A DNA stretch of 28,636 bases, from assembly GCA_964509525.1 (NCBI GenBank), contig CAZDYZ010001058.1, forward strand, positions 1 through 28,636. Direction: 5' to 3'. Position numbers and translations under genes: made by a program. Every line of letters begins with the position of its first letter. The first letter of the stretch is position 1. Origin of the DNA: an uncultured Acidobacteriaceae bacterium. GTDB lineage: Bacteria > Acidobacteriota > Terriglobia > Terriglobales > Acidobacteriaceae. Below are positions 8,560 through 20,359 of the stretch, piece after piece. The notes under the pieces are model-generated. The model was not told the origin of the DNA, ran no database searches, and was given only the letters and a program-made list of their open reading frames with translations.

Positions 8560-9423
8560 ATGGCAGCTTCTGTGTGGTCTGGTTATCTGACATTCGGACT
8601 GATCTCTATACCGGTGCGGCTGTTTTCAGGCGCACGCGGTAACCATATTGCGTTTCACATGCTGCATCGGGACGACAACACACGGATCAAGCAGCAACTC
8701 TGGTGCCCACACGACGAGCGCGTGGTGGAGCGTAGCGAAATTGTCAAAGGCTTCGAATACCGCAAGGGCGAGTACGTAATCATCGAGCCTGATGAAATCA
8801 AGAAGATTGAACCGAAGACCGCCAAGGCGATGGAGATCCTCGAGTTTGTCAAGGCCGAGGAAGTCGATCCGGTTTACTTCGAATCTTCCTATTACCTGAT
8901 GCCGGAAGAGGCTGGGCGCAAGCCTTACGCCTTGTTGTCGCGCGCGCTGGAAGAAACGGACTACGTTGCCATTGCCAAGCTGACCATGCACAACCGCGAA
9001 TACACAGTATTCCTGCGCCCCTATGAAGGCGGGCTCATGTTGCACACCATGTATTACAAAGAAGAGGTGCGGAAAGTGGAAAGTTTCGGCCGTCCGGACG
9101 TTGAGTTGAAAGAGGCCGAGGTTAAGATTGCCCACCAACTGATCGACGCTCTTGCCGGCAAGTTCGAACCGGAAAAGTATCATGATAGCTTTGAAGAAAA
9201 CCTTAAGACCCTTATCAAGGCGCGCCTCGAGGGGGATGAAGTCAGCTCTTTGGAGAAGCCTCGCAAACCCGCGCCCGTAGTGGATTTGATGGCCGCACTG
9301 AAGGAGAGCCTGGCGCAGCTACCCAAGAAGCCTCCACAGCGAGTAGCAGAAGCGCATCGGGAATCGGAAGTGAAGATCGTGCGGAAAGGCACCAAGACTT
9401 CGCGGCGCAGCAGCGCTGCCTGA
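8560..9423 (+). CDS. ku: Non-homologous end-joining protein Ku
   Basis: WSGYLTFGLISIPVRLFS, IVKGFEY, IDPVYF-like VDPVYFESSYYL, KPYALL..AL and VVDLMAALKESL, plus a basic C-terminal tail. Confidence 0.95.
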   Translation: MAASVWSGYLTFGLISIPVRLFSGARGNHIAFHMLHRDDNTRIKQQLWCPHDERVVERSEIVKGFEYRKGEYVIIEPDEIKKIEPKTAKAMEILEFVKAEEVDPVYFESSYYLMPEEAGRKPYALLSRALEETDYVAIAKLTMHNREYTVFLRPYEGGLMLHTMYYKEEVRKVESFGRPDVELKEAEVKIAHQLIDALAGKFEPEKYHDSFEENLKTLIKARLEGDEVSSLEKPRKPAPVVDLMAALKESLAQLPKKPPQRVAEAHRESEVKIVRKGTKTSRRSSAA

Positions 9424-9460: not shown

Positions 9461-9571
9461 CAGACAACCTAGGAGAAGTCGTTGTAATACTTCTACGTTG
9501 TCTAGCACCTTAGGTGTATCATAATGAAACACTAAAGTAATACTTTGCTATAGACGAAGAGTGCTCGTCTG

Positions 9572-10276
9572 ATGAGCTTGACTGCAAAGAAAACGACGGC
9601 AAAGAAGCGGGACGCGAACACAGCTCCTGTGAAAGAACCGATTCGTGTTGCAGTGCTCGAAAGTGATCCCCTTCGCTTCGAGGGTTTTCGCGCTATTTTT
9701 GGCTCCCATGCCGAGTTCCGCGTCCGCTCTTCAACGGTGCCGATGATTCTGAAGGCACTGGACGACGATGTTGTTTTGATGACCAGCAGCCGAGGCGCTG
9801 CGTTTTATTCCGCTCTGTCTGCGTTAAAAGCTGTGCGTCCGGGTGTGCGGGTCATTGTCACCGGTCCGGGTAGAAACGATGAAGACATTTTGCGGGCGAT
9901 TGCTGCGGGAGCGAAGGGATATGTTCCGGAAGATGCCAGCGCCGCGCACTTCAAGCAGGCCATCCGCTTGGTGCACAGCGGCTCGGTATGGGCTCCCAGA
10001 AGGCTGCTGGCAATTTTCATCGAGCGCGTAACCGGCTCCTCGGCCACCCGCCTGATACGGCCGCACAACGGCCAAATGATCAGCCGCCGCCAACGCCAGG
10101 TCTTGGCACTGCTGGCCGTGGGCAGCTCCAACCGCGAGATCGCAGGCGAACTTGGCCTCAAGGAGCGCACTATCAAGGCTCATGTCTCCGAGCTGCTTCG
10201 CAAGATCGGCGCCCCCAATCGGATCGCTCTGTCGGTCCATCCCCTCACGCACACGCTGCTCGCGGTCGATCTCTAA
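9572..10276 (+). CDS. NarL/LuxR-family response regulator with degenerate (pseudo) receiver domain
   Basis: C-terminal HTH ISRRQRQVLALLAVGSSNREIAGELGLKERTIKAHVSELLRKIG. The receiver has DVVLMTS where DVVLMD is canonical. Confidence 0.9.
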   Translation: MSLTAKKTTAKKRDANTAPVKEPIRVAVLESDPLRFEGFRAIFGSHAEFRVRSSTVPMILKALDDDVVLMTSSRGAAFYSALSALKAVRPGVRVIVTGPGRNDEDILRAIAAGAKGYVPEDASAAHFKQAIRLVHSGSVWAPRRLLAIFIERVTGSSATRLIRPHNGQMISRRQRQVLALLAVGSSNREIAGELGLKERTIKAHVSELLRKIGAPNRIALSVHPLTHTLLAVDL

Positions 10277-10323
10277 ATCGGCTGGTTTTGAAGGTTGCCC
10301 CAAACCTTGCCCCAGCCCCTGAC

Positions 10324-10418
10324 ATGGTAAGGTTACCATACCCCCAGTTTATTACTAAAGTACAGTTACCTAACATGTACCTTCGTAACTTGCATTCAGT
10401 TACCTTTAAGGGCATACT
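10324..10418 (+). promoter_or_regulatory. Sigma70-type promoter with overlapping inverted-repeat operator candidates
   Basis: TTGCAT (10390-10395)-N17-CATACT (10413-10418); perfect 7-2-7 inverted repeat ATGGTAA-GG-TTACCAT (10324-10339); GTAACT-N7-AGTTAC (10385-10403) spanning the -35; CAGTTACCT repeated at 10363 and 10397. Confidence 0.6.
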
Positions 10419-10424
10419 GCATTC

Positions 10425-10495
10425 ACCTACCACAGAACCTGGGAGACGGGGCTGGAAGAGGTTACGAGGGTCTCCTTTTTCAGCCCCCTTGTTTT
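10425..10495 (+). ncRNA. Candidate ~70-nt small RNA or attenuator leader
   Basis: Predicted start ~7 nt after the -10 box, ending in an intrinsic terminator. No ORF with a credible RBS. Confidence 0.4.
10448..10495 (+). terminator. Rho-independent terminator
   Basis: 14-bp stem GGGGCTGGAAGAGG / CCTTTTTCAGCCCC (with G-U pairs) followed by TTGTTTTT. Confidence 0.7.
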
Positions 10496-10527
10496 TCGGG
10501 CAACCTGACCGACATAGATGCCGCTGA

Positions 10528-10578
10528 GCTGGTTACTCTCTAGGTTCCTCCTCCGACACTAAAGAGTAACCAGCTTTT
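10528..10578 (+). terminator. Second hairpin, possibly a terminator or a long-spaced operator
   Basis: Perfect 12-bp inverted repeat GCTGGTTACTCT (10528-10539) / AGAGTAACCAGC (10563-10574) followed by TTTT; the loop is 23 nt. Confidence 0.45.
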
Positions 10579-10675
10579 ATCCTTCTTCCGGCTCAAACTG
10601 GTGTCCAACCGACGTAAGATGACAGCAGTCGGCTCATCGCAGGCCGAGAACACGCGTTGGATCGGAGTCGAGTGA

Positions 10676-11572
10676 ATGAAAAAAATTGCAGTGGTCACGC
10701 TTTCCGCACTTTCCCTGGCTTTGGGTGCCGTCGCATCGAACAGGCACGAAGCGACCATGGATCGTGTGCAAACTTCCAGCACCGTACTGCGCCAGATCAT
10801 GTCGGCTCCGGACCGCGCCATTCCCGATGCAATCATGTCGGGAGCCAAGTGCATTGCCATCGTGCCCTCGACGTTGAAGGGGGGCTTCATGTTCGGCGCC
10901 AACTATGGAAAAGGTGTCGCCACCTGTCGCACAGAACACGGTTGGAGCGCGCCAGTCTTTTTCCTGATGACCGGAGGCAGCTTCGGCTTTCAGGTCGGTG
11001 GACAGGCCTCCGATCTGGTTCTGGTTATCCGCACCGACGACGGCATGCAGCACCTTTTACAGAGCAAGTTTAAGTTAGGTGCCGATGCCTCCGCGGCCGC
11101 CGGGCCTGTGGGGCGAGATGCTCAGGCCTCGACCGACCTTACGCTGCGCGCCCAGGTGCTTACCTATTCACGCTCGCGTGGCTTGTTTGTTGGCGTGTCG
11201 TTAGGAGGCGCCGTCATTCGTCAGGACCAGGCGGACACACAAGCCTTCTACGGCAAGGGCTGGACCTTTTATTCCCTGCTGAAGGGACAGGTTCCAGCTA
11301 CCCCGGATTCCCTCGTCTTACTGAATACTGTCGAAAAGTACGCTCCGACGGGGAAAGCTCCCGTCCCGGCCACGCCTACTGTTGCTCCTTCGGCAACCAG
11401 CACGCCGCCGGCAATAAACCCGGCGCCGCCACCGGCCAACACTGCAGCGAAGACGCCGGAACCAGCTGAGACAACGCCGGCCGCCACTCCCAGTACGACT
11501 GCTGCCGCAGCCTCCGCACCTGTGGCATCAACTGCCCCTGACGCGTCAGGCAGTGCAACTACGCAACGGTAG
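10676..11572 (+). CDS. Lipid-binding SYLF/YSC84 domain protein, secreted, with Pro/Ala/Thr-rich tail
   Basis: AIPDAIMSGAKCIAIVP, KGGFMFGANYGKGVATCR, GWSAPVF, GGSFGFQVG, AAAGPVGR and YSRSRGLFVGVSL. Confidence 0.93.
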   Translation: MKKIAVVTLSALSLALGAVASNRHEATMDRVQTSSTVLRQIMSAPDRAIPDAIMSGAKCIAIVPSTLKGGFMFGANYGKGVATCRTEHGWSAPVFFLMTGGSFGFQVGGQASDLVLVIRTDDGMQHLLQSKFKLGADASAAAGPVGRDAQASTDLTLRAQVLTYSRSRGLFVGVSLGGAVIRQDQADTQAFYGKGWTFYSLLKGQVPATPDSLVLLNTVEKYAPTGKAPVPATPTVAPSATSTPPAINPAPPPANTAAKTPEPAETTPAATPSTTAAAASAPVASTAPDASGSATTQR

Positions 11573-20032: not shown

Positions 20033-20359
20033 ATGGCTTTCCGCGGCGTCAGCCGTGACTCCAATTCGCGACCCGACAGGATTCCTCCACCCGACGACAC
20101 TCACCAGGAGGCGGCGTACCTCAAGATGCTGGGCGAGAAGCAGCGCCCAGTGCGCATCAAGCTGCTGACCGGCGACGTTGTCCGTGGCTGGATTGAATAT
20201 TACGACCGACGCATGGTGCGGCTGACGCGCGACGGCGAGCCCAATCTGTTTATCTTCAAGCACGAGATCGCCTATATCGCTGAAGACGCGGGCCGTCAGC
20301 CGCGCTCCAACAATCTGCCCGGCGCGCAACATAGCAACTCGAGGGGCGCCTCCCCATGA
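20033..20359 (+). CDS. Hfq-like Sm-fold RNA chaperone (divergent paralog)
   Basis: QEAAYLKML...PVRIKLLTGDVVRGWIEYYD...LFIFKHEI aligns with Hfq QD.FL..L...V.I.L.NG..L.G.I..FD...YKHAI. GGAGG RBS. Confidence 0.8.
   Translation: MAFRGVSRDSNSRPDRIPPPDDTHQEAAYLKMLGEKQRPVRIKLLTGDVVRGWIEYYDRRMVRLTRDGEPNLFIFKHEIAYIAEDAGRQPRSNNLPGAQHSNSRGASP

Follow-up and report, generated by a model that had tools for sequence, protein, structure and literature searches.

A candidate regulatory module of a pseudo-receiver LuxR-type regulator, a small RNA and a SYLF-domain protein gene in Acidobacteriaceae

RcsB, a member of the NarL/FixJ family, activates the rprA promoter from a palindromic box located just upstream of the -35 element. 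For GacA/UvrY, the upstream activating sequence is TGTAAG-N6-CTTACA, and in VpsT the cyclic di-GMP (c-di-GMP) motif, W[FLM][TS]R, lies at the base of helix alpha6. Here, a locus to be set beside these systems is described in a 28.6-kb stretch of DNA from an uncultured Acidobacteriaceae bacterium (contig CAZDYZ010001058.1, positions 1 to 28,636; hereafter the window, meaning the whole stretch that was analysed). Between a gene for a LuxR/GerE-type regulator and a gene for a secreted SYLF/Ysc84-domain protein, the locus holds a unit for a ~73-nt small RNA (sRNA) preceded by GTTAC-type sites. Conservation, covariation, synteny, motif sharing, and complementarity were observed among related genomes, and they make it reasonably probable that the three genes constitute a regulatory module conserved throughout Acidobacteriaceae, in which the regulator activates a base-pairing sRNA.

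The short terminated transcript of the original prediction, placed at ~70 nt, is, on comparative evidence, a real, deeply conserved, and previously undescribed sRNA with its own promoter. Among 115 distinct aligned sequences, positions 1-22 of the RNA are invariant or at least 90% conserved, and the terminator stem covaries: its partners pair in 98.1% of cells, compared to 36-59% when the partners are slid, and 136 cells carry double changes (8-46 for slid partners; 0 of 500 shuffles attain this value), distributed over 10 pairs. In the genus alignment, the -10 element CATACT and the first ~23 transcribed nucleotides (nt) are invariant, and the hairpin arms vary with compensation. The RNA at 10425-10497 folds with -31.6 kcal/mol (z = -3.0), a value equalled by none of 200 shuffles. 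No family in Rfam 15 matched the window at the gathering threshold, with chance-level matches only at E <= 10, and literature searches found no paper on the ~73-nt sRNA. The elements of the unit are listed below; the operator sites and their spacer carry no strand.

10351..10364, distal 5-4-5 site A, ATTAC-TAAA-GTACA (consensus GTTAC-N4-GKACA), from the genus and ~80 further species, anchored on the -10 element
10365..10374, genus-specific 10-nt spacer GTTACCTAAC between sites A and B, from the alignment
10376..10389, proximal 5-4-5 site B, TGTAC-CTTC-GTAAC, abutting the -35 element and centred at -42.5 from the predicted start A10425
10390..10418, + strand, sRNA promoter (-35 TTGCAT, 17-nt spacer, -10 CATACT), from conservation in ~100 loci
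10425..10497, + strand, whole sRNA, ~73 nt (covariance model match at 10425-10498, 90.8 bits)
10425..10447, + strand, single-stranded invariant 5' region (seed), ACCUACCACAGAACCUGGGAGAC, from the alignment of 115 distinct sequences
10448..10497, + strand, intrinsic terminator (stem 10448-61/10474-87, loop with conserved AGGGUC, U-tract), from covariation

Conservation supports a promoter that is independent of the flanking genes: CATACT is invariant and its spacing to the -35 element fixed in ~100 loci, and invariant sequence begins 6-7 nt downstream. A simple consensus scanner did not flag TTGCAT-N17-CATACT, as only ~7 of 12 consensus positions are matched, and the promoter is weak and probably activator-dependent. 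A GTTAC pentamer (10399-10403) lies inside its 17-nt spacer. The -10-anchored consensus of ~80 loci, GGTTACt-N3-GgACAnTGACCTcgGTAATCTTGt-N17-CATACT, reads as two abutting 14-bp units, A (GTTAC-N4-GKACA) and B (xTGAC-N4-GTAAT). Sites A and B abut in the broad clade and are separated by a 5-nt spacer in two loci, and the junction of site B with the -35 element, ACCTTCGTAAY-TTG, is kept family-wide, including lineages in which the regulator is 36-41% identical. An argument from helical phase for the 10-nt spacer was abandoned because 5-nt variants exist, and a sigma54 reading of the upstream block was set aside by eye because of unsuitable spacing.

Around this promoter, exact GTTAC/GTAAC pentamers occur seven times within 10332-10570, compared to 28 times in the entire window; in a scan of the 5.14-Mb assembly, seven per 250 nt was the densest cluster of the genome, the runner-up holding five. 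The individual elements from which the original prediction started are all present, namely eight occurrences of the core or its half (the seven exact copies plus GGTAA at 10326), the 7-2-7 inverted repeat ATGGTAA-GG-TTACCAT at 10324-10339 (by direct reading and by repeat search), GTAACT-N7-AGTTAC at 10385-10403 spanning TTGCAT, a pair of CAGTTACCT copies at 10363 and 10397 (offset 34 nt), the promoter sequence TTGCAT (10390-95)-N17-CATACT (10413-18), and the 14-bp terminator stem followed by CUUGUUUUUC. As an operator, the 7-2-7 repeat did not hold up: a genome scan returned one copy, relatives lack it at the orthologous loci, and only its GGTTACC (10330-10336) is conserved, within the genus only. 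The expectation that motifs would be conserved beside orthologous regulators thus fails for this repeat and holds for 5-4-5 sites of the GTTAC/GTAAC type. A 13-nt inverted repeat (10292-10304/10494-10506, 189 nt apart, 12 of 13 positions complementary) flanks the entire promoter and sRNA unit; it is probably due to chance, since its left arm is not conserved among relatives.

The unit is widespread and keeps its neighbours. By DNA search, positions 10352-10496 are present in 35 of 36 genus genomes, with ~80% identity overall and ~90% across the RNA part, and in none of 24 sister-family genomes. The exact seed 21-mer CCTACCACAGAACCTGGGAGA occurs in at least 120 species genomes; among the matches listed, which include Ca. 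Sulfotelmatobacter, Ca. Angelobacter, and Terracidiphilus, all but one are labelled Acidobacteriaceae, Terriglobales, Terriglobia, or Acidobacteriota, the sole outlier being a bin labelled Verrucomicrobiia. The covariance model detected the sRNA in 68 of 122 family genomes and in 0 of 28 sister-family genomes. Weak model matches in two large genera and model-missed loci in four genera all lie between LuxR and SYLF orthologues (36-41% and ~52% identical, respectively) and retain the core CAGA(N)CUGGGRGA and a terminator; the same core is kept in the most distant lineages. The family-level distribution of the regulator coincides with that of the sRNA: nearly all family genomes encode an orthologue scoring >150 bits, and the sister family, without the sRNA, reaches only paralogue level (~100 bits). 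Both the covariance-model and the regulator-orthologue tallies include the unpublished genome G127, and the latter also includes G041, G046, G050, and G052; no conclusion rests on these genomes.

Synteny was scored with the LuxR gene at most 1.2 kb upstream and the SYLF gene at most 0.8 kb downstream. Among 65 loci with both flanks, 43 have both genes, 14 SYLF only, 7 LuxR only, and 1 neither, placing SYLF downstream of the sRNA in 57; several "missing" regulators were found 1.3-2.1 kb upstream, and the two non-syntenic loci with recognisable downstream open reading frames (ORFs; L006 and L017) both have insertion sequence (IS) transposases there. The LuxR–sRNA–SYLF order persists across Acidobacteriaceae, even with a regulator only 36% identical, and the adjacency of regulator and sRNA is kept across the whole family. 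Complete, single-contig genomes of two large genera, presumably from cultured isolates, also carry the module. In one genome (G075), two tandem sRNA copies lie 1.3 kb apart (L196:1989-2057 and L196:3300-3373, both on the - strand); the second copy has the same terminator and a different 5' region (AAUUAAAACAGC..GGAGAC), suggesting a paralogue with an altered seed.

The regulator itself matches VraR/LiaR, DevR, and NarL over its full length, and its AlphaFold2 (AF2) model (predicted local distance difference test, pLDDT, 77) has predicted fold matches to LiaR, VraR, NarL, RcsB, and VpsT. It combines a receiver fold with a C-terminal GerE helix-turn-helix. In the alignment with VraR, Thr71 takes the place of the phospho-acceptor Asp, ES that of DD, and Glu/Pro that of the Lys; the Asp is conserved in none of 27 orthologues. 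The assignment as a pseudo-receiver LuxR protein is therefore borne out: by sequence, the regulator is an atypical, pseudo-receiver member of the NarL/FixJ type, and with its phospho-acceptor lost it is presumably governed by abundance or a ligand rather than by a kinase. The segment GSVWAPR hardly varies among the orthologues; it sits at the start of helix alpha6 and is a possible ligand site. Within it, W140-R143 (window positions 9989-10000) falls where VpsT has its c-di-GMP motif; a residue-level alignment to VpsT was sought with a 56-amino-acid (aa) fragment, which gave no match in the PDB.

The flanking genes and the remaining elements of the locus are as follows, the two inverted repeats carrying no strand; 399 nt separate the regulator and SYLF genes.

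End at 9423, + strand, Ku gene, upstream of the regulator gene
9498..9525, + strand, promoter-like site of the regulator gene, TTGTCT-N16-CATAAT, from a consensus scan
9572..10276, + strand, LuxR/GerE-type regulator with pseudo-receiver domain, 234 aa (Pfam GerE, E = 2e-16)
10324..10339, perfect 7-2-7 inverted repeat, sole copy in the genome
10527..10575, inverted repeat GCTGGTTAC...GTAACCAGC upstream of the SYLF promoter, from a repeat search, in the window's genus only
10616..10621, + strand, -10-like TAAGAT of a separate putative SYLF promoter (CTAAGATGA conserved in the genus)
10676..11572, + strand, secreted SYLF/Ysc84-domain protein with signal peptide, 298 aa (Pfam Ysc84, E = 2e-37), weakly matching the NCBIfam BPSL1445 SYLF lipoprotein family

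A tie between regulator and sRNA promoter comes from a large sister clade, whose regulators are 45-54% identical to that of the window. There, 62 of 82 distinct loci carry a GTTAC-N4-GTAAY palindrome before the regulator gene, at a fixed position ahead of the regulator promoter (TCTTTGCA-N17-TATGCT), and the same pattern has 0 matches in the remaining 628 kb of locus DNA. Likewise, TGTTAC-N4-GTAATT occurs in one to two copies per genome in four near-complete genomes, one of them always 70-90 nt before the regulator gene. The sRNA promoter uses the same pentamer half-sites, which is the pattern that an autoregulated dimer-binding factor would give, and it fits a regulator that would bind both promoters, control its own gene, and drive the sRNA. 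Control of the sRNA by the adjacent regulator, as originally proposed, is thus moderately favoured; adjacency and half-sites shared in a large clade speak for it, with binding and transcription themselves predicted. In the window's own genome, a scan for GTTAC-N4-GTAAC gave 4 perfect and 2 near-perfect matches, mostly inside ORFs, with no enrichment over a control pattern. A non-coding cluster without a long ORF on contig C743 (near 6591, GTTACTTCGGTAACCATGGTAAC) combines a perfect 5-4-5 palindrome with a third pentamer and may be another site for the same factor in this genome.

Complementarity points to SYLF as a probable target of the sRNA in sister genera. In the broad clade, the 5' untranslated region (UTR) of SYLF is complementary to the whole seed in either of two forms: a bipartite form, AUCCCAG ... 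UGUGGUGAGG, the latter part being the Shine-Dalgarno region (e.g., L072, -24.9 kcal/mol, z = -6.1), and a contiguous form, UCUCCCAGGUGAGG (e.g., L045, -20.0 kcal/mol). Pairing of the seed with the SYLF translation-initiation region (TIR) reaches p <= 0.05 against shuffled TIRs in 48% of 112 distinct loci. For 64 distinct SYLF TIRs, the mean duplex energy is -15.7 kcal/mol, compared to -9.7 for the reversed seed and -9.5 for the regulator TIR, and the real duplex beats these controls in 60 and 57 of the 64, respectively. Although the genomes are not independent, the match of two site architectures to a single invariant seed speaks for an interaction that has been maintained, and pairing across the Shine-Dalgarno region in most sister genera predicts translational repression. 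Of 97 distinct spacers, 60 contain a -10-type element (TTTACAAT, ATAGAAT, or CTAAGAT), a median of 43 nt upstream of the SYLF ATG; this suggests that SYLF has its own promoter and that the predicted pairing site falls within a short 5' UTR.

In the window's genus, the inverted repeat upstream of the SYLF promoter, whose right arm CACTAAAGAGTAACCAGC is the better conserved, raises the speculation that direct transcriptional control may have replaced RNA control of SYLF. The 9-mer ACACTAAAG followed by (A)GTAA is found twice in the window, at 9531-9545, directly 3' of the promoter-like -10 of the regulator gene, and at 10555-10569, in the right repeat arm before the SYLF promoter; an akin ACTAAAGTAC lies inside site A (10354). 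The copy upstream of the regulator is weakly conserved in the genus, and the 9-mer may be a further shared operator element.

In the mechanism proposed from these data, a NarL/FixJ-type regulator that has lost its phospho-acceptor Asp, and is under abundance or ligand control, would bind GTTAC sites as dimers, with the proximal site at a class-II activator position (-42.5). It would thereby activate a weak sigma70-type promoter and yield a ~73-nt, Rho-independently terminated sRNA, which would base-pair through the 22 invariant nt at its 5' end. The seed would cover the Shine-Dalgarno region of the SYLF mRNA and repress translation in most sister genera; in the window's genus, the SYLF site would have gone and the SYLF promoter would instead have gained GTTAC repeats. 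Transcription, regulator binding, the direction of regulation, and the use of Hfq in this scheme are inferred. The suggested link of the sRNA to the Sm-like gene of the window, 10 kb away (20117-20281), found no support: this gene scores just 28 bits against Pfam Hfq, a canonical Hfq is encoded on contig C584 (80 bits, Pfam Hfq), and a third weak copy lies on C81.

Several observations weigh against this scheme. The transcript and its start at A10425 are read from sequence features, and the genomes compared are related rather than independent samples. Sites A and B lie 0, 5, or 10 nt apart, a variability that would be uncommon for a rigid tetramer. In the window's genus, no palindrome was found upstream of the regulator gene (0 of 6 loci), and the window's seed pairs with the SYLF TIR/leader at -9.4 kcal/mol, a value matched by 58% of shuffles, the rest of the genus likewise lacking complementarity. 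A genome-wide duplex scan of 10,912 candidate starts placed internal GTG codons and implausible ORFs at the top and yielded no convincing target; in a search with perfect-complement k-mers, match counts were at chance expectation. Finally, three sister species (G028, G029, and G006) carry the same A+B module at 9-11 other promoters per genome, so that its binder need not be the local regulator; the window's genome itself (G000) has a single copy.

These other loci (L021-L040 and L161-L170) fuse GGTTACC-N13-GTTACGAAAGTACAGTTACC-N5-CTGTACCTTCGTAATC to a consensus TTGACA-N17-TAnnnT promoter. Their transcripts would start with GGAGAC.GGG and continue with a boxB-like hairpin and a boxA-like GCTCTTTGACAAT, followed by tandem units of ~100 nt, one to three in number, that end in GGGAGGGGG. 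Downstream lie heterogeneous genes (recA in two species, a cyclase, DUF1223, and a 1436-aa protein) or convergent genes. The loci have no Rfam match and look like an amplified promoter/noncoding RNA (ncRNA) cassette.

The copied module bears most directly on an alternative that we rate as less likely, though a serious contender: the sRNA would be real, its promoter module would be bound by another, global factor, and the LuxR protein would control, for example, SYLF or only itself, in a shared pathway. The identical A+B module on consensus TTGACA promoters at unrelated loci favours such a factor, as do the sites of the sRNA promoter, half-degenerate where the regulator's own promoter has a perfect palindrome, and the lack of that palindrome in the window's genus. 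It accounts less readily for the pentamer half-sites common to both promoters, for a regulator-sRNA adjacency that holds down to 36% protein identity, and for the coinciding family-level distributions. In a doubtful extension of the activation scheme, the regulator would be a ligand-sensing switch dedicated to ncRNAs, GacA-like without CsrA, acting on ~10 copied promoters with SYLF as the ancestral target; the invariant VpsT-like W-x-x-R at alpha6 would make c-di-GMP a candidate ligand. That the copied promoters of some species of the genus drive boxA-led, tandem-repeat ncRNAs belongs to this extension and is equally doubtful.

Other explanations concern the RNA unit itself. Action through protein binding, as a sponge or decoy for the regulator or an RNA-binding protein that recognizes the 5' region and the AGGGUC loop, is quite improbable. 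The seed stays invariant in the window's genus despite the lost SYLF complementarity, the loop is conserved, and the RNA has GGA/GGG motifs, all of which this idea would explain; the bipartite Shine-Dalgarno complementarity in most sister genera instead points to base pairing, searches of 41 genus genomes (27 of high quality) recovered no CsrA, and ProQ was not found in this genome. A CsrA sponge of the CsrB/RsmY type was rejected on the same absence of CsrA and on the single hairpin with loop GAGGGUC. Scarcely more credible, and if anything slightly less so, is the attenuator raised as an alternative in the original prediction, in which the ~70-nt unit is a SYLF leader and pairing of GGAGAC (10442-47) with GUCUCC (10470-75) blocks the terminator. 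The unit does precede SYLF on the same strand in those 57 of 65 loci, and most sequences could form five of the six pairs, given the conservation of both sides. This pairing does not covary, however: it shows 0 double changes, 93 of 115 sequences cannot form the middle pair, and shuffles give equal values. A separate -10 element stands at a fixed distance before the SYLF start, the unit is also found without SYLF and as extra copies, and an invariant single strand of 22 nt is atypical of attenuators. Least credible, and by a wide measure improbable, is that no separate RNA gene exists: the hairpin would simply end the regulator mRNA, and the conserved stretch of 22 nt would serve as a DNA operator. 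Between the regulator stop codon (10276) and 10448 there is indeed no terminator, but an invariant -10 box with fixed -35 spacing lies directly upstream, the unit is retained at loci that lack a neighbouring regulator gene, and in sister clades an mRNA carries a site complementary to these 22 nt.

Acidobacteriota rank among the most abundant bacteria in soil, and to our knowledge almost no trans-acting regulatory RNA or circuit has been described in them. A 2022 review table gives 4 annotated sRNAs for Acidobacteriota (PMC9029176). The module of regulator, operator, and sRNA, with a predicted target site in most genera, would constitute a concrete family-wide circuit, and its sRNA would be of the base-pairing kind controlled by a transcription factor, undescribed before. 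If the complete genomes that carry the module do come from cultured isolates, it is open to direct bench testing. It would also represent a case of regulatory turnover, with one invariant seed, two target-site architectures, and no SYLF site in the window's genus.

Compared to known systems, the locus resembles RcsB–RprA in pairing a NarL/FixJ regulator with an sRNA promoter, and structures of RcsB with the rprA promoter are among the fold matches of the regulator. RprA is, as is predicted for the sRNA described here, of the Hfq type, with a 5' pairing region and an intrinsic terminator; the two share no sequence similarity, the sRNA here having no Rfam match. In contrast to this locus, where the Asp is missing, the genes are adjacent, and two 5-4-5 sites are present, RcsB is phosphorylated and its gene does not lie beside rprA. 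GacA/UvrY, with RsmY/RsmZ/CsrB, provides a FixJ/NarL-type regulator devoted largely to sRNA genes through a palindromic upstream site, and the copying of the operator module to several ncRNA promoters in sister species is a further likeness to that system. The Rsm/Csr RNAs, however, sequester CsrA, for which no gene was found in the 41 genus genomes, whereas the RNA here has one hairpin and a long single-stranded seed.

With respect to the protein, VpsT/CsgD share a non-phosphorylated receiver-like domain, an extra helix alpha6, and a GerE helix-turn-helix. The sequence and fold matches of the regulator both include VpsT, and a Trp-x-x-Arg (WAPR) stands at the start of alpha6; WAPR does not fit W[FLM][TS]R, in that W and R are kept and the middle residues differ. 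In gene arrangement, the nearest parallels are OxyR–OxyS and GcvA–GcvB, in which a transcription factor gene lies beside the sRNA gene under its control and the two genes are conserved together. Those pairs are divergent and of the LysR type, whereas the genes here are co-oriented and the regulator is a LuxR-type pseudo-response regulator, and the locus here has a third member, the predicted target gene.

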